The notes under the pieces: generated by a model
Told to the model about the DNA's origin: nothing
The model's database searches: none
What the model saw: the letters and a program-made list of their open reading frames with translations, nothing else
NCBI RefSeq assembly: GCF_050320075.1
Contig: NZ_CP190018.1
Origin: Escherichia coli
GTDB lineage: Bacteria; Pseudomonadota; Gammaproteobacteria; Enterobacterales; Enterobacteriaceae
Reading direction: 5' to 3' (one strand)
DNA length: 64,000 nt
Shown: in pieces, positions 1-50,678 of the stretch
Position numbering within the stretch: position 1 is the first letter of the stretch
Layout: the number at the start of each line of letters is the position of its first letter
Translations under genes and position numbers: made by a program

Positions 1-112
1 AAAGCGCATAAAAATAACAACATAAAACACTTTACCACCACCAAAAAATTCTCTATTGCATTGTTTTTTAATGAAAAAACATTATTCTCGTAATATTTCA
101 CGATAAATAACA

Positions 113-132
113 TTAGGATTTTGTTATTTAAA
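113..132 (+). promoter_or_regulatory. GAD box (GadE-binding site) of the gadBC promoter
   Basis: The 20-mer TTAGGATTTTGTTATTTAAA lies about 80 nt upstream of the gadB ATG. It matches the published GAD box of the gadA/gadBC promoters (from memory). Confidence 0.8.
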
Positions 133-211
133 CCCGAGTCCTTTGCACTTGCTTACTTTATCGATAAATCCTACTTTTTTAATGCGATCCAATCATTTTA
201 AGGAGTTTAAA

Positions 212-1612
212 ATGGATAAGAAGCAAGTAACGGATTTAAGGTCGGAACTACTCGATTCACGTTTTGGTGCGAAGTCTATTTCCACTATCGCAGAATCAAA
301 ACGATTTCCGCTGCACGAAATGCGCGATGATGTCGCATTCCAGATTATCAATGACGAATTATATCTTGATGGCAACGCTCGTCAGAACCTGGCCACTTTC
401 TGCCAGACCTGGGACGACGAAAATGTCCATAAGTTGATGGATTTATCCATTAACAAAAACTGGATCGACAAAGAAGAATATCCGCAATCCGCTGCAATCG
501 ACCTGCGTTGCGTAAACATGGTTGCCGATCTGTGGCATGCGCCTGCGCCGAAAAATGGTCAGGCCGTTGGCACCAACACCATTGGTTCTTCCGAGGCCTG
601 TATGCTCGGCGGGATGGCGATGAAATGGCGTTGGCGCAAGCGTATGGAAGCTGCAGGCAAACCAACGGATAAACCAAACCTGGTGTGCGGTCCGGTGCAA
701 ATCTGCTGGCATAAATTCGCCCGCTACTGGGATGTGGAGCTGCGTGAGATCCCTATGCGCCCCGGTCAGTTGTTTATGGACCCGAAACGCATGATTGAAG
801 CCTGCGACGAAAACACCATCGGCGTGGTGCCGACTTTCGGCGTGACCTACACCGGTAACTATGAGTTCCCGCAGCCGCTGCACGATGCGCTGGATAAATT
901 CCAGGCCGACACCGGTATCGACATCGACATGCACATCGACGCCGCCAGCGGTGGCTTCCTGGCACCGTTCGTCGCCCCGGATATCGTCTGGGACTTCCGC
1001 CTGCCGCGTGTGAAATCGATCAGTGCTTCAGGCCATAAATTCGGTCTGGCTCCGCTGGGCTGCGGCTGGGTTATCTGGCGTGATGAAGAAGCGCTGCCGC
1101 AGGAACTGGTGTTCAACGTTGACTACCTCGGTGGTCAGATTGGGACTTTCGCCATCAACTTCTCCCGCCCGGCGGGTCAGGTAATTGCACAGTACTATGA
1201 ATTCCTGCGCCTCGGTCGTGAAGGCTATACCAAAGTACAGAACGCCTCTTACCAGGTTGCCGCTTATCTGGCGGATGAAATCGCCAAACTGGGGCCGTAT
1301 GAGTTCATCTGTACCGGTCGCCCGGACGAAGGCATCCCGGCGGTTTGCTTCAAACTGAAAGAGGGTGAAGATCCGGGATACACCCTCTACGACCTCTCTG
1401 AACGTCTGCGTCTGCGCGGCTGGCAGGTTCCGGCCTTCACTCTCGGCGGTGAAGCCACCGACATCGTGGTGATGCGCATTATGTGTCGTCGCGGCTTCGA
1501 AATGGACTTTGCTGAACTGTTGCTGGAAGACTACAAAGCCTCCCTGAAATATCTCAGCGACCACCCGAAACTGCAGGGTATTGCCCAGCAGAACAGCTTT
1601 AAACATACCTGA
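212..1612 (+). CDS. gadB: Glutamate decarboxylase beta (PLP-dependent)
   Basis: ORF 143..1612 was trimmed to ATG 212, which has AAGGAG upstream. The 466-aa product starts [19 protein letters not shown] and contains the SGHKF PLP-lysine motif. gadC follows. Confidence 0.96.
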
Positions 1613-1767
1613 TAACGTTTAACGGTAACGGTGTCCCGAAACACACCCGTTTCGGGACAATTTCCAAAGTCTGTTCACTGGCATTAGCAACGGAAAATAT
1701 TGTTCTGAATACGTTTCAGAACAAAACAGGTGCGGTTCCGACAGGAATACCGTTTTAGGGGGATAAT

Positions 1768-3303
1768 ATGGCTACATCAGTACAGACAGGTAAAGCTAAG
1801 CAGCTCACATTACTCGGATTTTTTGCCATAACGGCATCGATGGTAATGGCTGTTTATGAATACCCTACCTTCGCAACATCGGGCTTTTCATTAGTCTTCT
1901 TCCTGCTATTAGGCGGGATTTTATGGTTTATTCCCGTGGGACTTTGTGCTGCGGAAATGGCTACCGTCGACGGCTGGGAAGAAGGTGGTGTCTTCGCCTG
2001 GGTATCAAATACTCTGGGGCCGAGATGGGGATTTGCAGCGATCTCATTTGGCTATCTGCAAATCGCCATTGGTTTTATTCCGATGCTCTATTTCGTGTTA
2101 GGGGCACTCTCCTACATCCTGAAATGGCCAGCGCTGAATGAAGACCCCATTACCAAAACTATTGCAGCACTCATCATTCTTTGGGCGCTGGCATTAACGC
2201 AGTTTGGTGGCACGAAATACACGGCGCGAATTGCTAAAGTTGGCTTCTTCGCCGGTATCCTGTTACCTGCATTTATTTTGATCGCATTAGCGGCTATTTA
2301 TCTGCACTCCGGTGCCCCCGTTGCTATCGAAATGGATTCGAAGACCTTCTTCCCTGACTTCTCTAAAGTGGGCACCCTGGTTGTATTTGTTGCCTTCATT
2401 TTGAGTTATATGGGGGTAGAAGCATCTGCAACCCACGTCAATGAAATGAGCAACCCAGGGCGCGACTATCCGTTGGCTATGTTATTGCTGATGGTGGCGG
2501 CAATCTGCTTAAGCTCTGTTGGCGGTTTGTCTATTGCGATGGTCATTCCGGGTAATGAAATCAACCTCTCCGCAGGGGTAATGCAAACCTTTACCGTTCT
2601 GATGTCCCATGTGGCACCGGAAATTGAGTGGACGGTTCGCGTGATCTCCGCACTGCTGTTGCTGGGTGTTCTGGCGGAAATCGCTTCCTGGATTGTTGGT
2701 CCTTCTCGCGGGATGTATGTCACAGCGCAGAAAAACCTGCTGCCAGCAGCATTCGCTAAAATGAACAAAAATGGCGTACCGGTAACGCTGGTCATTTCGC
2801 AGCTGGTGATTACTTCTATCGCGTTGATCATCCTCACCAATACCGGTGGCGGTAACAACATGTCCTTCCTGATCGCACTGGCGCTGACGGTGGTGATTTA
2901 TCTGTGTGCTTATTTCATGCTGTTTATTGGCTACATTGTGTTGGTTCTTAAACATCCTGACTTAAAACGCACATTTAATATCCCTGGTGGTAAAGGGGTG
3001 AAACTGGTCGTGGCTGTTGTCGGTCTGCTGACTTCAATTATGGCGTTTATTGTTTCCTTCCTGCCGCCGGATAACATCCAGGGTGACTCTACCGATATGT
3101 ATGTTGAATTACTGGTCGTGAGTTTCCTGGTGGTACTTGCCCTGCCCTTTATTCTCTATGCTGTTCATGATCGTAAAGGCAAAGGGAATACCGGCGTCAC
3201 TCTGGAGCCAATCAACAGTCAGAACGCACCAAAAGGTCACTTCTTCCTGCACCCGCGTGCACGTTCACCACACTATATTGTGATGAATGACAAGAAACAC
3301 TAA
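1768..3303 (+). CDS. gadC: Glutamate:GABA antiporter (APC family)
   Basis: A 511-aa polytopic membrane protein starting [19 protein letters not shown], directly downstream of gadB. Confidence 0.96.
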
Positions 3304-3328
3304 CCATGTCTGAATGGTTATAAGATAA

Positions 3329-3356
3329 GGGAGCGATAATTCATCGCTCCCTTTTT
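3329..3356 (+). terminator. Rho-independent terminator after gadC
   Basis: GGGAGCGAtaattcaTCGCTCCC followed by TTTTT. Confidence 0.8.
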
Positions 3357-3433
3357 CGTGCTTGCTGTCGTATTGACTTAACCGGGATAAGTACGAGAAT
3401 GAGCGCACATCTGTTTACCGGAAACCAGCACAT

Positions 3434-4753
3434 ATGGATATCTGCTCCCGAAACGAGAAATTAGCGATTAGAAGACCAGCGATACTGGTTGCACTGGCAC
3501 TTTTACTGTGTAGTTGTAAAAGCACGCCTCCAGAGTCCATGGTGACACCACCAGCGGGTTCAAAGCCACCAGCCACGACGCAACAATCGTCACAACCGAT
3601 GCGTGGCATCTGGCTGGCTACGGTGTCTCGCCTCGACTGGCCACCGGTTTCCTCGGTTAACATTAGTAACCCCACCAGCCGGGCCCGTGTACAACAACAG
3701 GCGATGATCGACAAACTGGATCATCTGCAACGTCTCGGCATAAACACGGTCTTTTTCCAGGTCAAGCCGGACGGTACCGCCCTGTGGCCATCAAAAATTT
3801 TGCCGTGGTCCGATCTTATGACCGGAAAGATTGGTGAAAATCCAGGTTACGATCCGCTGCAATTTATGCTCGACGAAGCCCACAAGCGTGGGATGAAAGT
3901 ACACGCCTGGTTTAACCCCTATCGCGTATCGGTTAATACGAAGCCCGGTACTATCAGGGAACTGAATAGCACTCTGTCTCAACAACCAGCGAGCGTCTAT
4001 GTGCAACACCGCGACTGGATCAGAACGTCCGGCGATCGCTTTGTCCTCGACCCGGGCATCCCTGAAGTTCAGGACTGGATCACATCAATAGTCGCGGAAG
4101 TGGTTTCCCGCTATCCGGTAGATGGCGTGCAGTTTGACGACTATTTCTATACTGAGTCACCAGCTTCACGGCTAAATGATAACGAAACGTACCGCAAATA
4201 CGGAGGCGCATTTGCGTCAAAAGCAGACTGGCGGCGCAACAATACTCAGCAGTTAATTGCGAAGGTATCGCACACCATTAAAAGCATTAAGCCGGAAGTC
4301 GAATTTGGCGTTAGCCCGGCAGGCGTGTGGCGTAACCGATCACACGATCCGCTCGGTTCCGATACCCGAGGCGCGGCAGCCTATGACGAATCCTACGCTG
4401 ACACCCGTCGATGGGTGGAACAAGGATTGCTGGATTACATTGCTCCCCAAATTTACTGGCCGTTCTCACGGAGTGCCGCACGTTATGACGTTTTGGCAAA
4501 ATGGTGGGCAGATGTCGTTAAACCGACCAGGACCCGCCTGTATATCGGTATCGCCTTCTATAAAGTGGGTGAACCTTCAAAGATAGAGCCAGACTGGATG
4601 ATTAACGGCGGCGTACCGGAACTGAAAAAACAGCTCGATCTTAACGATGCCGTGCCAGAAATTAGCGGCACAATCTTGTTCCGTGAGGACTATCTGAATA
4701 AACCGCAGACTCAACAAGCGGTTAGCTATCTGCAAAGTCGTTGGGGCAGTTAA
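3434..4753 (+). CDS. yddW: Glycosyl-hydrolase-like (GHL10) lipoprotein
   Basis: A 439-aa ORF with a signal/lipobox-like N-terminus (ALALLLCSCKS), in the K-12 yddW position next to gadC. Confidence 0.9.
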   Translation: MDICSRNEKLAIRRPAILVALALLLCSCKSTPPESMVTPPAGSKPPATTQQSSQPMRGIWLATVSRLDWPPVSSVNISNPTSRARVQQQAMIDKLDHLQRLGINTVFFQVKPDGTALWPSKILPWSDLMTGKIGENPGYDPLQFMLDEAHKRGMKVHAWFNPYRVSVNTKPGTIRELNSTLSQQPASVYVQHRDWIRTSGDRFVLDPGIPEVQDWITSIVAEVVSRYPVDGVQFDDYFYTESPASRLNDNETYRKYGGAFASKADWRRNNTQQLIAKVSHTIKSIKPEVEFGVSPAGVWRNRSHDPLGSDTRGAAAYDESYADTRRWVEQGLLDYIAPQIYWPFSRSAARYDVLAKWWADVVKPTRTRLYIGIAFYKVGEPSKIEPDWMINGGVPELKKQLDLNDAVPEISGTILFREDYLNKPQTQQAVSYLQSRWGS

Positions 4754-4775
4754 ACTCCCATTCATACTTTGTGAC

Positions 4776-4800
4776 AAGCCGGTGGTTTACCCACCGGCTT
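4776..4800 (+). terminator. Hairpin terminator after yddW
   Basis: AAGCCGGTGGtttacCCACCGGCTT. The T-run is weak. Confidence 0.55.
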
Positions 4801-5129
4801 GCTACCCTCTTGAAATATCCCACTAGTAATCATGCTTACTTAAGTCAAATTAACTACGCAATTAACCACACTTAGTTAAACAGTCATAAATCCCCTAATA
4901 AAAATGTATGAACATGAAAAAACATACGATATTCGCTGTCACCGAAAAATAATTACGATGGGCTATACTCTTCTGAAGAACAGTAGCGTAGATTGAAACT
5001 GTCCTAAGTCGCTTATTTCTTTTCAGTATATCTTCATATTTCAGGAGAATATGGTGCAGTTAGTCGATCTCGCACGTTGCGTTTCGTTTTGATTCCGTCT
5101 GCTTTCCCAGCCTTATAAGGGTGTGAATT

Positions 5130-5467
5130 ATGGAGATGTATTTTAAAAGAATGAAAGATGAGTGGACCGGGCTTGTCGAACAAGCAGATCCGCTCATTCG
5201 TGCTAAAGCCGCGGAAATTGCCGTTGCGCATGCCCATTATCTGAGTATTGAGTTTTACCGAATTGTCCGTATCGACCCGCATGCCGAAGAATTCTTGAGT
5301 AATGAACAAGTTGAGCGGCAGTTGAAAAGTGCGATGGAACGCTGGATTATTAACGTGCTTTCTGCCCAGGTGGACGATGTCGAAAGGCTAATACAAATCC
5401 AGCATACCGTTGCGGAAGTGCATGCCCGCATAGGAATTCCGGTAGAAATTGTCGAGATGGGGTTTCG
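5130..5467 (+). pseudogene. dosC: dosC 5' fragment (globin-sensor domain only), truncated by IS1
   Basis: MEMYFKRMKDEWTGLVEQADPL... matches the DosC N-terminus for about 112 codons. It then runs into the IS1 left inverted repeat at 5468, and the ORF ends in IS1 sequence at 5489. No GGDEF domain follows. Confidence 0.92.
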
Positions 5468-5522
5468 GGTGATGCTGCCAACTTACTGATTTAGTGTATG
5501 ATGGTGTTTTTGAGGTGCTCCA

Positions 5523-5798
5523 GTGGCTTCTGTTTCTATCAGCTGTCCCTCCTGTTCAGCTACTGACGGGGTGGTGCGTAACGGCAAAAGCACCGCCGGA
5601 CATCAGCGCTATCTCTGCTCTCACTGCCGTAAAACATGGCAACTGCAGTTCACTTACACCGCTTCTCAACCCGGTACGCACCAGAAAATCATTGATATGG
5701 CCATGAATGGCGTTGGATGCCGGGCAACCGCCCGCATTATGGGCGTTGGCCTCAACACGATTTTCCGCCATTTAAAAAACTCAGGCCGCAGTCGGTAA
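5523..5798 (+). CDS. insA: IS1 InsA
   Basis: A 91-aa zinc-finger/HTH protein, [32 protein letters not shown]... Confidence 0.95.
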
Positions 5799-6220
5799 CC
5801 TCGCGCATACAGCCGGGCAGTGACGTCATCGTCTGCGCGGAAATGGACGAACAGTGGGGATACGTCGGGGCTAAATCGCGCCAGCGCTGGCTGTTTTACG
5901 CGTATGACAGGCTCCGGAAGACGGTTGTTGCGCACGTATTCGGTGAACGCACTCTGGCCACACTGGAGCGTCTTCTAAGCCTGCTGTCGGCCTTTGAGGT
6001 CGTGGTATGGATGACGGATGGCTGGCCGCTGTATGAATCCCGCCTGAAGGGAAAGCTGCACGTAATCAGCAAGCGTTACACTCAGCGAATTGAGCGGCAT
6101 AACCTGAATCTGAGACAACATCTGGCAAGGCTGGGACGGAAGTCACTGTCGTTCTCAAAATCGGTGGAGCTGCATGACAAGGTCATCGGGCATTATCTGA
6201 ACATAAAACACTATCAGTAA
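5717..6220 (+). CDS. insB: IS1 InsB frame (expressed as InsAB' transposase by -1 frameshift)
   Basis: A 167-aa ORF overlapping insA. The AAAAAAC slippery site is at 5774..5780. Confidence 0.93.
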
Positions 6221-6235
6221 GTTGGAGTCATTACC

Positions 6236-6430
6236 GAAAATTCAACAGCAGAACCCGCTCTGGTTAATGCCATTGAGCAAGGCCTTCGGGCAGAGCACGG
6301 TGTTGTCACTGAAGATGACATTCTCATGGAGCTGACCAAATGGGTGGAAGCTTCTGATAACGACATCCTCAGTGATATCTACCAGCAAACGATCAATTAT
6401 GTGGTCAGTGGCCAGCACCCTACGCTTTAA
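6236..6430 (+). pseudogene. bdm: bdm lacking its promoter and first 7 codons
   Basis: The frame starting immediately after IS1 reads ENSTAEPALVNAIEQGLRAEHGVVTEDDILMELTKWVEASDNDILSDIYQQTINYVVSGQHPTL*. This is Bdm residues 8-71, with no start codon. Confidence 0.88.
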
Positions 6431-6531: not shown

Positions 6532-6669
6532 ATGAAATCGAACCGTCAGGCACGTCATATTCTTGGACTGGACCATAAAATTTCTAACCAGCGCAAAATA
6601 GTTACCGAAGGTGACAAATCCAGCGTGGTAAATAACCCAACCGGCAGAAAACGCCCCGCTGAAAAGTAA
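6532..6669 (+). CDS. sra: Stationary-phase ribosome-associated protein (S22)
   Basis: A 45-aa ORF not in the track, [45 protein letters not shown], with GAGGAG upstream. Confidence 0.92.
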
Positions 6670-6825
6670 TTCATAACCATCAGTCCTCAATGACGATTAA
6701 ACACCATTGCCTGCGCAATGGTGTTTTTGTTTTTATCTGCTTTATACTTGGGGCCGACGCCCTGGCGGTAAAGCAAAGACGATAAAAGCGTGCCAGGGTT
6801 GGATATTCAAAAAAGAGTGAGTGAC

Positions 6826-9783: not shown

Positions 9784-10068
9784 ATGAAAATGGCCAATCA
9801 TCCCCGCCCGGGGGACATTATTCAGGAATCACTGGACGAACTTAATGTCAGCCTGCGCGAGTTTGCCAGAGCAATGGAAATTGCGCCCTCAACGGCAAGC
9901 CGATTGCTGACCGGAAAAGCAGCTTTGACACCAGAAATGGCGATTAAACTTTCCGTGGTGATCGGCAGTTCGCCGCAAATGTGGCTGAATCTGCAAAACG
10001 CCTGGAGTCTGGCAGAGGCAGAAAAAACGGTGGATGTGTCGCGATTACGCCGTCTGGTTACGCAATAA
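9784..10068 (+). CDS. yddM: HigA-like XRE-HTH antitoxin homolog (orphan)
   Basis: A 94-aa protein, [45 protein letters not shown]... No toxin ORF is adjacent. Confidence 0.9.
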
Positions 10069-10779
10069 TAAATATCCTCCGGCATAGCCGGAGGTTTTTC
10101 AAATGCGCCTGTAAGGCTCTGTTACCAGCCGCGCCCTAACAGGCGCATACGATCTGACATTTGCATTCAACTTCGTTACTTACGGCCCGTAAACGGGCTG
10201 CCCGGATATGGAATCGATAACTGCTCCCCCATTTTATCCTCTTCAAGCTGGTGCTTTATGTAGTCCTGTATCTTCGCCGTGTTCTTACCCACCGTATCGA
10301 CATAGTACCCTCGGCACCAGAACTCCCTGTTTCTGTATTTGAATTTCAAATCCCCAAACTGCTCGTAAAGCATCAGACTGCTTTTCCCTTTCAGATATCC
10401 CATAAAGCCGGATACGCTCATTTTGGGTGGGATTTCCACAAGCATATGGATATGATCTGCGCAGCACTCTGCTTCCAGAATCCGTACGCTTTTCCACTCA
10501 CACAGCTTTCTCAAAATACTGCCTATCGCCCTACGCTTCTCTCCGTAAAACGCCAGTCTTCGGTATTTCGGCGCAAAAACTATGTGATATTTACAGTTCC
10601 AGCGGGTGTGCGCTAAGCTCTTTTCGTCCCCCATTGGGACCCCCTTTTGATTTCTTGTTTGACACTTGCAGTTGCCAGACCGCAAGGTGTTTTAACAAAT
10701 CAAAAGGGGTTTTAATAACTGGCTCAAAGCTGAAAGCTTTCCGGAACCCCCAGCCTAGCTGGGGGTTTTCTGTGCACAA
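10067..10779 (-). mobile_element. IS200 (about 713 bp), copy 1
   Basis: The extent was defined by comparison with the inverted second copy at 49966..50678. It has a left-end hairpin (CCCCCAGCctaGCTGGGGG), tnpA, and a right-end hairpin CCTCCGGCataGCCGGAGG plus T5. No terminal inverted repeats and no target duplication are present, as expected for IS200/IS605. Confidence 0.9.
10176..10634 (-). CDS. tnpA: IS200 TnpA (Y1/HUH transposase)
   Basis: ORF trimmed to MGDEKSLAHTRWNCKYHIVFAPKYRR... (152 aa). It has the HUH motif (HIHMLV) and a C-terminal catalytic-Tyr region. Confidence 0.93.
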   Translation of the reverse strand: MGDEKSLAHTRWNCKYHIVFAPKYRRLAFYGEKRRAIGSILRKLCEWKSVRILEAECCADHIHMLVEIPPKMSVSGFMGYLKGKSSLMLYEQFGDLKFKYRNREFWCRGYYVDTVGKNTAKIQDYIKHQLEEDKMGEQLSIPYPGSPFTGRK

Positions 10780-37061: not shown

Positions 37062-37377
37062 ATGTCTGCTATACGCCGGACACCCTTTACGTAGCATTCG
37101 GAATTCACCCGTAAATTTATCACGGCGGTATCACGAAACCTCCGGTTCTGATGCCGCTTAGGACTAACGACACGTCAACACAGGTTCGGGTTTATTCATT
37201 TCACTGTATCTCATATAATCTGAGCACTCCCCCTGCGCTCGCTACTATGACTCTTTACCACAGCAACCGGGGTTGTTTGGGATCGGCTTTCAACAGCAGA
37301 TCCCGGTGGCTATTGCAAGTAAGTCTACTTTCCACATCAGTGTTACTGACACAGAAAATAATGAGTTATGATCCTTG

Positions 37378-37863: not shown

Positions 37864-40800
37864 CTATTCCCCCAATCATCTAACTCCGGAAAAATTTGGC
37901 TAAACGGATATAGTGGTGCCGATAATGGACGCGTACCTGGCCGCTCAGGAGGAAGTTTATCACATAACAGACCCGCAACCATCCTGTGATTACCATTAAC
38001 AATCACATTCCCATCCATATCAACCGGTGGTGCTCCACTACCATCTTCCAGCATTTGTACGTAGTGAGCTACTACGGGTACTGAGACTTTTTGTTGTACT
38101 GTCAACAAGGGACTGTTGGCCACAACCATCCTGATGTTTTCAGGTGTCGTAGGTAAACATTTAGTCTTCTCTTGACTAAAGGTATCATCCCACAATTTTG
38201 TTAAACCCATCACTGCCTGTTGTCTGTATTTATCCATGGGGTCAGCAATCAACCAAGATGGACCTGACTGCTCTATGGAATCTTCTCCGGAGAGACCCAA
38301 CGGATCTATCTTAGTAGTTGGATTCAATGGATACTGATACAGGTTCCATGCACCTCTTAGCCCAATGGGATCCTGGGTGATATACCGCCCCTGCAACGGG
38401 TCATAGTACCGGTTGCGGTTATAGTACAGCCCCGACTCCTCATCATACTGCTGCCCCGGCAGACGGTACGGCTGTTGCAGTTGCTGCGCGCTGGTTTCGC
38501 CCAGCAGGTTTCCCCACTCGTCATACTCCCCCTGCCACGCCGTTTCCCCTTCCGGGCTGATGAGCGCCTGCGGCAGCCCCCGGTGGTCGCAGTGGTAAAG
38601 ATGAAGTGTCCTCTCCGGGATGTATTCCGCCTCCATCTGGTTTTTCATCTGTTCCGCCGTCAGCCCGCACTGCTGAAGCCATGCCTCACTCTCCGCACTC
38701 ACCGCACCCGCGCGCAGTTCCCGCTCCAGCCTCCCCAGCATCACCGACAGCTCCGCCGGTAGCGTCACCCCCGTGTCCTCCTGCAACACCTCCGCCAGAC
38801 TCCGGTGCCGCGCCTTCGCCTGTTCACCATTCTCTGTTTCGATTCTGATGAGCGGCGTGAAGCTCCCCGGCTGGTATACCGTCTGGATACGCGTGGTGCC
38901 GGTCTGTACCGTCGTCAGCCTGTCACCGTCCCACCCGTACCAGGTCTCCTCCGGTTTACGCGACAGCGACATCCACCCCGTCAGGTCACGCTCCCGCCGC
39001 CACACCCGTTTCCCCGTCCGGCGGCCCAGCGGGTCATAGAGGTAGCGGCTCTCCACCTGTGGCTCGCCGTGCTGTATCCGCGTGTAGAACACCAGGCGGT
39101 GCTGGCTGTCGTAATGGTAGTGGTGCGTCCGCTCGTCGTGCATCCGTATCACCCCTTCCGGGATACGGTCCGTCTTCTCCGCCAGCCTGCCGTATTCATC
39201 GTAGCGGTAGACATAGTGCGCATCTTCCGTGATGCGGTTATCCGGCCACGCCGTGAAGGTGCTGTCCGGGTGCAGTTCCGGGTCCGGCAGCCGGTTTCCT
39301 GCCGGGTCCGTCGCATACGGGATATCGATATCCAGGTTCGCCGCCGTGGTGTGAACGCCCGTCAGTCTTCCCGTGTCGCTGTAACGGTACTTCCGGCTCT
39401 CCTGCGGGCCGCTGATGCGCACCAGTTGCCCGTTATCGTTCCACGTATACTCACGGTCAAGCTGCGGAAGGTTCAGGTGCCTGCTCCGGAGCTGCCCTGT
39501 GAGGGTGTACGCCGTGGCCTGTTCGTACCCCGCTGTACTGCCCGCCCCGCCGAAGCTGCGGGCCGTCTCACGGTGCAGCCGGTCCCGCGTGTACTCGACC
39601 AGCGGCGTTCCGCCCAGCTTCATCCCCGCAAGATAACCGCTGCCATACGTCAGCCACTCCACCGGCGGCAGACCGTCCGGCTCCTGACGGGTCGCCAGCC
39701 CCTGTTCGCTGTAGACGTGCCTCGTCTCATGCTCCCACAGCATCTCCCCCGTCTCCTGGTTCTCCACCGTCTGCCGTTCGCCCGTCAGGCGGCCTTTATC
39801 GTCATAGCCGTAGTGGACCGCCACACGGTGGCCTTCGCTCAGGTGGCTGATTTCTGTCAGCCAGCCGTGGTCGTCATACTGCCACTGCTCCGCCGGGTCG
39901 CCGTTCACCGTCCGGTGCGTGATGCGCCCGGCGTCATCGTAGTACCACTGCGTGACCTGCCCCTCATCCTCGCTGCGGATGAGCTGCCCTGTGGCGCTGT
40001 ACCGGTAACGCTGTGTCCTGCCGTCAAAGCCGCGCTGCTCCGTCAGCCTGTCCACCGGGTCATACCGGAACGTGGACTGGCTGCCGTTCTCGTTGGTCAG
40101 CACGGTGATGCGCCCGGCGGCGTCATACTCCATGCTGCGCGTCAGTCCGCCCTGCGTGGTGCTGACGGCCTTTCCCCACGCATCATACTGTGTCTCACTC
40201 CGGCTGCCGTTCGGGGCAATGATAGCGGTGAGGTCGCCTGCGGCGCTGTACTCATAACGGGTTTCACGTCCCTGCGCATCCTTCTGACTGACCAGTTGAC
40301 CACGCGGGTTATAACTGCTGTAAGTGCTGATGCCTTCCTCCCGGTGAACCGCCGTCCTCTGACCGTACCGGTCGTATTCATACCGCGTCGTGTACCCTGA
40401 ACAGTCCGTAAATGCCTGAAGCTGACCGTACCGGTTTCGCGTTATTCTCCGCCTCACCCCGGTTCCGTCTTCCACCGCACAGGGCAGGCCACTGCGGGAA
40501 GAATCATAAAACCAGCGCGTAATGTTACCGTTGCGCGAGACCTCTTCCGCCAGCCTGCCCTGACGGTCATATTTCCGGCTGCGGCGCAGCCCGTCCGGGT
40601 ACGTCACTGACGTCAGTTGCAACTGGTTGTTGTAACCATACCGTACCGTCCTGCCGTCCGGCAGTATCACTGAAGTCAGCTTTCCCGACGCCATATGCAG
40701 CCGGTACTCCGTCCGCCGTCCCGCCGCATCCGTCTGCGCCTTCAGCCTCCCCGCCTCATCATACTCGCTGCGGGTGATGCTCCCGTCCCCATACTCCTTC

Positions 40801-49965: not shown

Positions 49966-50678
49966 TTGTGCACAGAAAACCCCCAGCTAGGCTGGGGGTT
50001 CCGGAAAGCTTTCAGCTTTAAGCCAGTTATTAAAACCCCTTTTGATTTGTTAAAACACCTTGCGGTCTGGCAACTGCAAGTGTCAAACAAGAAATCAAAA
50101 GGGGGTCCCAATGGGGAACGAAAAGAGCTTAGCGCACACCCGATGGAACTGTAAATATCACATAGTTTTTGCGCCAAAATACCGAAGACAGGTGTTCTAC
50201 AGAGAGAAGCGTAGAGCAATAGGCAGTATTTTGAGAAAGCTGTGTGAGTGGAAAAGTGTACGGATTCTGGAAGCTGAATGCTGTGCAGATCATATCCATA
50301 TGCTTGTGGAGATCCCGCCCAAAATGAGCGTATCCGGCTTTATGGGATATCTGAAAGGGAAAAGCAGTCTGATGCTTTACGAGCAGTTTGGTGATTTGAA
50401 ATTCAAATACAGGAACAGGGAGTTCTGGTGCAGAGGGTACTACGTCGATACGGTGGGTAAGAACACGGCGAAGATACAGGATTACATAAAGCACCAGCTT
50501 GAAGAGGATAAAATGGGAGAGCAGTTATCGATTCCCTATCCGGGCAGCCCGTTTACGGGCCGTAAGTAACGAAGTTGGATGCAAATGTCAGATCGTGTGC
50601 GCCTGTTAGGGCGCGGCTGGTAAGAGAGCCTTATAGGCGCATTTGAAAAACCTCCGGCTATGCCGGAGGATATTTATT
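49966..50678 (+). mobile_element. IS200 (about 713 bp), copy 2
   Basis: It has the same ends as copy 1. The left-end hairpin is 49980..49998. The long 5'-UTR stem 50036..50105 (CCCCTTTTGATTTGTT...AACAAGAAATCAAAAGGGG) buries the Shine-Dalgarno sequence. The right-end hairpin is at 50651..50669. Confidence 0.9.
50111..50569 (+). CDS. tnpA: IS200 TnpA (Y1/HUH transposase)
   Basis: MGNEKSLAHTRWNCKYHIVFAPKYRRQVFYREKRRAIG... (152 aa). It differs from copy 1 at several residues (D3N, LAFYG vs QVFYR). Confidence 0.93.
   Translation: MGNEKSLAHTRWNCKYHIVFAPKYRRQVFYREKRRAIGSILRKLCEWKSVRILEAECCADHIHMLVEIPPKMSVSGFMGYLKGKSSLMLYEQFGDLKFKYRNREFWCRGYYVDTVGKNTAKIQDYIKHQLEEDKMGEQLSIPYPGSPFTGRK

Follow-up and report, generated by a model that had tools for sequence, protein, structure and literature searches.

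A single IS1 copy joins truncated dosC and bdm genes in Escherichia coli: a probable adjacent deletion with a precursor allele on record

The joint between dosC and bdm

The window under study, a stretch of 64,000 nucleotides of Escherichia coli DNA, contains a joint at which the beginning of dosC is connected to the end of bdm by one complete copy of IS1 (Table 1). The neighboring genes are intact on both sides, with gadC and digH upstream of the joint and sra, followed by maeA and adhP, downstream of it. The dosC remnant leads directly into the left end of IS1, and because the first four bases of the element (GGTG, 5468-5471) are also the next four bases of dosC, codons 113 and 114 are kept as well, and the breakpoint is ambiguous by 4 nt. 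The resulting read-through frame is diagnostic for the dosC-IS1 junction. A Pfam analysis of the remnant yields only a Protoglobin match (24-110 of 158), which represents part of the globin sensor domain, and no GGDEF domain, the middle and GGDEF regions of the gene being located within the deleted block. The dosC gene of the window thus lacks the domain that defines a diguanylate cyclase, and its remnant should be regarded as a pseudogene. The dosC promoter region (4754-5129) is kept and, as judged from the gene content, would now read into IS1.

Table 1. Coordinates of the features around the joint and of the second IS1 copy in the window.
Feature	Coordinates	Strand	Remarks
digH (yddW)	3434..4753	+	Intact; last intact gene upstream of the joint
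dosC (dgcO) 5' remnant	5130..5467	+	Codons 1-112 plus 2 nt; ATG at 5130
Read-through ORF, DosC(1-114)+MLPTY and stop	5130..5489	+	Stop inside the left inverted repeat of IS1
Complete IS1	5468-6235	+	768 bp; same orientation as dosC and bdm
insA	5523-5798	+	Inside the IS1 at 5468-6235
A6C -1 frameshift motif	5774-5780	+	In the IS1 at 5468-6235
insB, stop codon	6218-6220	+	In the IS1 at 5468-6235
bdm 3' remnant	6236..6430	+	Codons 8-71; Pfam BDM 8-71 of 71; matches K-12 bdm from codon 8
Surviving right-hand duplication copy, GAAAATTC	6236..6243	+	Left-hand copy gone with the deletion
sra (rpsV)	6532..6669	+	Intact; first intact gene downstream of the joint
Second complete IS1, in yddG	16157-16924	-	768 bp; 8-bp duplication CGTTTATC at 16149-16156 and 16925-16932

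The assignment of the element to IS1 is based on a length of about 768 bp, on imperfect terminal inverted repeats that each measure some 23 bp (GGTGATGCTGCCAACTTACTGAT and ...ATCAGTAAGTTGGAGTCATTACC), and on insA and insB frames which are joined by the A6C site and code for a zinc-ribbon/HTH protein and a DDE transposase (Pfam matches Zn_ribbon_InsA, 3e-21; HTH_Tnp_IS1, 1.7e-30; DDE_Tnp_IS1, 3e-75). The left inverted repeat GGTGATGCTGCCAACTTACTGAT is present at 5468-5490 without any mismatch, with no occurrence expected by chance, and the 3' terminus ...GGAGTCATTACC at 6235, where the right inverted repeat was read directly, sets the length at 768 bp. This copy is intact and potentially active. 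Simple insertions of IS1 generate a target duplication of 8-9 bp, and an 8-bp duplication of this kind is found at the second IS1 of the window (CGTTTATC) and at the IS1 in bdm of the close relative YZLc1-3 (GAAAATTC). The 9 bases flanking the copy at the joint (GGGGTTTCG on the left, GAAAATTCA on the right) contain no target duplication, as is expected after a rearrangement.

On the right-hand side, the bdm remnant is devoid of a promoter and a start codon; the stop codon of insB is located in frame 15 nt upstream, and no canonical start codon occurs in frame before Met38 (6326). PGAP annotates the remnant as a 66-amino acid protein (P0031) with an ATT start inside the right end of IS1, and a look-up of the 34-amino acid Bdm remnant returned matches dominated by frameshifted bdm genes of other enterobacteria. 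A terminator-like hairpin (6699-6726) is located downstream of sra, a gene which, as judged from the gene content, may no longer be reached by any transcripts starting at the bdm promoter. The original prediction, made from the sequence of the window, had placed both ends of the joint correctly: the switch from dosC to the left end of IS1 at 5468 after about 112 readable codons is confirmed to the base, the beginning of bdm at codon 8 immediately after position 6235 agrees with the Pfam match and with K-12 bdm, and the claimed absence of an 8-9 bp direct repeat is borne out by the two flanks.

Several other mobile elements are present in the window. The second IS1, which also occurs in YZLc1-3, is a diverged variant identical to the copy at the joint in 732 of 768 positions. 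The two copies are inverted relative to each other and 9.9 kb apart, such that recombination between them could invert the segment bdm'-sra-maeA-adhP-fdnGHI; this inversion is not present in the window. Two copies of an IS200-type element (10067-10779 and 49966-50678) are 96% identical to each other and each contain an Rfam match to the Hfq-binding sRNA STnc490 (10644-10767 on the minus strand, 49978-50101 on the plus strand); the first of them is located between yddM and fdnI, where K-12 does not carry it. A further Rfam match, to group-II-D1D4-2 at 37202-37310 on the minus strand (48 bits; gathering score, 36), is flanked on one side by a remnant of an ISAs1 transposase and on the other by the pentapeptide-repeat gene that follows an Rhs core protein, and probably represents a fragment of a group II intron. 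Downstream of yddG, at about 17570-21400, the window carries intact genes for an OmpC-like porin and leucine-rich-repeat proteins, as judged from the YZLc1-3 annotation (L007 35171-39016), at a place occupied by the yddL/yddK region in K-12.

The missing block in comparison with K-12 and YZLc1-3

In the annotation of K-12 MG1655, the genes follow one another in the order digH, dosC, dosP, ddpX, ddpABCDF, osmC, bdm, and sra, which agrees with the order given in the original prediction. The alignment to MG1655 that had been proposed along with it matches the window on both sides of IS1 and leaves about 10,543 bp unmatched, corresponding roughly to NC_000913.3 1,556,260-1,566,802.

A much closer reference is available in E. 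coli YZLc1-3 (NZ_CP123240.1), a strain from chicken faeces in Yangzhou whose genome is the closest one to the window and also ranks first over 24 kb elsewhere in it; a literature search on this strain found nothing. A base-level comparison reveals that positions 1-5467 are identical in both, with the dosC remnant 100% identical to dosC of YZLc1-3 as far as the joint, while the 58,533 bases from 5468 to 64000 contain two differences (C versus A at 39474 in the Rhs core gene, G versus C at 52785 near the start of mnaT) and no indels. The source of the window is therefore a sibling of YZLc1-3, or the same clone sequenced differently. The sole structural difference consists of 10,551 bp which YZLc1-3 has in addition, directly to the left of IS1, and which contain dosC from codon 113, dosP, ddpX, ddpABCDF, osmC with the spacer that separates it from bdm, the first seven codons of bdm, and the left-hand GAAAATTC. 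A blastn search with this block against the rest of the 64-kb window gave no match; within the window, the block is lost rather than relocated.

In YZLc1-3, IS1 is present as a simple insertion at codon 8 of bdm, with the 8-bp duplication GAAAATTC on both sides. This copy has the same orientation as the one in the window and is identical to it in 768 of 768 positions, and the junction between IS1 and bdm is also the same (160 of 160 positions), YZLc1-3 being the one among 5,426 complete E. coli genomes that matches it perfectly over this length. The gap in the window begins at the first base of IS1, within the 4-nt ambiguity, and leaves the right junction unchanged, as is characteristic of an adjacent deletion, and both the simple-insertion parent and the identical IS copy are on record. 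The structures before and after the event are thus directly visible, as are the exact breakpoints and the identity between the two IS1 copies. The two alleles share IS1, the right junction, the second IS1 in yddG, and, apart from 2 SNPs over the 64 kb, the flanks, whereas YZLc1-3 retains the 10,551 bp with both copies of GAAAATTC and with dosC, dosP, ddpX, ddpABCDF, and osmC all annotated as intact. The duplicated GAAAATTC marks the YZLc1-3 allele as the earlier state, and the reverse relationship, with the window as the ancestor of YZLc1-3, was rejected on the same grounds. An inversion between the two oppositely oriented IS1 copies was rejected as well, since the window is collinear with YZLc1-3 and K-12.

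The original prediction of an IS1-associated deletion reaching from the remainder of dosC to the 5' end of bdm is therefore upheld by the comparison with YZLc1-3. Its further statement that the deletion silenced bdm needs correction, because the duplication in YZLc1-3 indicates that the gene had been split at codon 8, and hence inactivated, by the preceding insertion; what the deletion did remove are the promoter and codons 1-7. The exact 66-amino acid protein annotated for the bdm remnant is encoded on four NCBI contigs, including those of YZLc1-3 and of the draft sibling GCA_025583545.1, whose respective contig of 3,984 bp is common to six samples. The bdm::IS1 junction is therefore clonal within a small group of isolates.

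Recurrence of IS1 junctions and gene loss between digH and sra

Neither the whole dosC'-IS1-'bdm allele nor the dosC-IS1 left junction in one piece occurs in any of 5,426 complete E. coli genomes; five matches that seemed to cover the left junction were rejected, since they consisted of two pieces with IS1 located elsewhere in dosC. A 50-amino acid frame that spans the junction in antisense is likewise absent from the records. The exact DosC(1-114)+MLPTY frame is present on 14 short metagenome contigs, of which the five listed are from human gut (ERR525781 and ERR525782 of PRJEB6456, ERZ27239429, JGI 3300029073 and 3300039313). Five contigs that were compared with positions 1479-5592 of the window (L010-L014) end inside IS1 and are identical to it in nucleotide sequence at the dosC-IS1 junction, but their flanks differ from the window at 74-80 positions in 3.5-4.1 kb, the nearest about 55 bp from the joint. 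Moreover, the flank of L010 is 100% identical to a common haplotype with intact dosC, represented by WCHEC020031, AMA1167, and others. The same junction thus arose independently, at the same base, in an unrelated lineage.

Further N-terminal fragments of DosC (P0002, P0006, P0007, P0010, and P0013 were considered) point to additional breaks nearby. In P0002, residues 1-104 of DosC are followed by GDAANLLI and a stop, as encoded by an in-frame left end of IS1, which indicates an IS1 junction in the same orientation 27 nt upstream of the one in the window. P0010 ends with GFGC and a stop at codon 112 of DosC, and several partial DosC proteins, one of them from Shigella flexneri, end at codons 102-110 at contig edges. 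These sequences suggest a local hot spot for IS1 targeting in this stretch of dosC. On the other side of the block, CUWW10 has the identical IS1-bdm junction with a different IS1 variant and flanks diverged by 3%, and together with the diverged flanks of the metagenome junctions (74-80 sites per 4 kb) it might indicate that codon 113 of dosC and codon 8 of bdm are hot spots of nucleotide precision, with the same deletion or dosC truncation recurring independently in unrelated lineages of gut E. coli. We regard this wider proposition as tentative and rather improbable. If it were true, O2-sensing by the DosC/DosP c-di-GMP module would have been lost in parallel, perhaps under selection.

The interval between digH and sra has been hit in various other ways. 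Three strains (BDSF8-3, MLI110, and 65COLEC) have IS1 between digH and dosC, L1_E925 has it at another position within dosC, and 23 genomes carry IS1 near enough to the bdm junction to join it in one match. In NCTC9967, IS1 is located a few bases from the bdm site of the window, and osmC is intact on the left. Four other deletions were found at the locus, three of them bounded by IS1 (0.3 to tens of kb) and one free of IS elements. Apart from the 309-bp deletion of CUWW10, which extends leftward from the left end of IS1, they comprise a digH-IS1-'sra joint in MS20673, a joint in GD33 which connects a truncated ydeQ-like fimbrial gene via IS1B to the region upstream of bdm (tens of kb are missing, including gadBC), and the IS-free digH-'osmC joint of STEC1587, in which dosC through part of osmC is gone. 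Thirteen other genomes share the IS1-bdm match pattern of GD33, which was the only one of them inspected. As their breakpoints, IS1 variants, and lineages differ, MS20673, GD33, and STEC1587 represent independent events.

The complete 10.5-kb block (L007:12519-23069) is present in 4,209 of the 5,426 genomes and hence not in about 22%. In some 1,200 genomes (22%), roughly one third of it remains: dosP, osmC, and bdm are there and ddpXABCDF is missing. Another 13 of the 5,426 yielded no match to the block. The presence of the ddp operon thus varies within E. coli, and the repeated hits at the locus across strains indicate that loss of the genes of the block is common and evidently tolerated. The allele of the window is a further indication that IS1 repeatedly drives gene loss between digH and sra in E. 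coli.

Origin of the deletion and its relation to known IS1 events

The original prediction left two mechanisms side by side, an IS1 adjacent deletion and recombination between two IS1 copies. Their products would not differ; of the two, an adjacent deletion in one step, starting from the resident copy in bdm, is favored here, with a probability of roughly 0.65. According to this scenario, an ancestor resembling YZLc1-3 would have carried the simple IS1 insertion at codon 8 of bdm, and the IS1 transposase would have carried out one intramolecular transposition of the classical adjacent-deletion type, joining the left end of this resident copy to a target within dosC that lies after codons 112-114, at a distance of 10.5 kb on that chromosome. 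The intervening DNA would have been released as a non-replicating circle and lost. It comprised the left-hand duplication copy, the bdm promoter with codons 1-7, osmC, ddpFDCBA, ddpX, dosP, and the 3' three-quarters of dosC, whereas IS1 and its right junction with bdm would have been left untouched. The one-step route is preferred because neither IS1 nor its right junction differs from the precursor, and because no IS1 insertion at the dosC site was found in the complete genomes, metagenome contigs, and recorded reading frames that were searched. The involvement of transposase, although we infer it, is in keeping with a deletion end at the precise terminus of IS1, which is to be expected if transposase made the joint and improbable if the deletion was random. 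In addition, CUWW10 shares the right junction, and its deletion forms a series with the other two alleles, extending from one fixed end over 0 (YZLc1-3), 0.3 (CUWW10), and 10.55 kb (window). Deletions of varied length from one fixed end are the textbook pattern of IS1 adjacent deletions. Two observations count against the one-step route: transposition has no need of the four bases (GGTG) that dosC and IS1 share at the joint, and the occurrence of the same dosC-IS1 junction in an unrelated lineage makes a transient simple insertion at dosC plausible.

The latter point leads to a two-step course, in which a second IS1 would have inserted into codon 113 of dosC in direct orientation and then recombined with the bdm copy via RecA. 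This course is possible but clearly less probable. It yields exactly the observed product with a surviving IS1 lacking a duplication, base-identical to the present one if both copies were identical, and the dosC site is a demonstrated IS1 target, given the identical junction in the other lineage, the IS1 junction 27 nt upstream (P0002), and the several draft assemblies that break at dosC codons 102-110. However, it needs two rare events instead of one, and the expected intermediate was found in no genome or contig: a simple IS1 insertion at the dosC site is missing from the 5,426 complete genomes, YZLc1-3 as the closest relative has no IS1 in dosC, and a search for the right junction of such an insertion among JGI metagenome contigs gave four matches, all due to chance and located in non-E. 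coli DNA. Of the reading frames that a simple dosC insertion would generate, the diagnostic one of 355 amino acids is absent from the records; the one of 347 amino acids is present but merely reflects an old annotation of intact yddV (K-12, REL606) and is uninformative. The surviving IS1 equals the bdm copy in 768 of 768 positions without any chimerism, despite the presence of a 95%-identical IS1 variant in the genome.

Two further explanations appear far less probable, and even jointly they are very unlikely. An assembly artefact, in which direct IS1 copies in dosC and bdm were collapsed and the block between them dropped, would reflect a known failure of assemblers with direct repeats, but is very improbable here: a genuine insertion of IS1 at the dosC site would be needed all the same, a unique 10.5-kb block would normally persist as a contig of its own, and the same left junction was assembled independently in metagenomes. 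Besides, two IS1 and two IS200 copies are spanned cleanly with only 2 SNPs relative to YZLc1-3, which suggests long-read quality. Even less credible is an IS-independent illegitimate recombination by replication slippage between the GGTG repeats in dosC and at the IS1 terminus, which would account for the 4-bp identity at both breakpoints; four bases are very short for a deletion of 10.5 kb, the coincidence with the exact terminus of IS1 is left unexplained, and the deletion in CUWW10 starts from the same IS1 end without such microhomology.

The deletion predicts that eleven genes' worth of function were lost. As judged from the gene content and the established functions, the strain should lack the O2-sensing DosC/DosP module of c-di-GMP metabolism; the gene content likewise predicts the absence of D-Ala-D-Ala uptake and hydrolysis (the Ddp transporter and the DdpX dipeptidase) and of the peroxiredoxin OsmC, and an inactive bdm as before the deletion. 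The processes expected to be affected are the control of PNAG, curli, and RNA processing by c-di-GMP in response to oxygen, the scavenging of D-Ala-D-Ala, and the defence against organic peroxides. YZLc1-3 and the genome of the window, with 2 SNPs in 64 kb, constitute a natural near-isogenic pair for the respective phenotype tests.

Among the known alleles with losses at this locus, those of MS20673, the GD33 group, STEC1587, and S. flexneri 2457T resemble the window in lacking the same genes wholly or partly, mostly with IS1 at the joint; for the last one, dgcO is reported to carry a 'truncating deletion, no GGDEF' (PMC11327459). The first three differ from the window in breakpoints, IS1 variants, and lineages. 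The event at the joint is of a known kind and its mechanism is not new, but it provides a clean natural instance of an IS1 adjacent deletion whose precursor is documented, and only the identical junction in a second lineage is mildly surprising. Adjacent deletions by IS1 were reportedly first described at the gal locus, by Reif and Saedler in 1975. As in those deletions, IS1 remains anchored to its flank at one end, the missing segment begins exactly at the other terminus and extends to a nearby target, and IS1 is kept while the target duplication is lost. The differences are that the allele described here comes from a natural isolate instead of being selected in the laboratory and that the event is reconstructed after the fact, and none of them is mechanistic.
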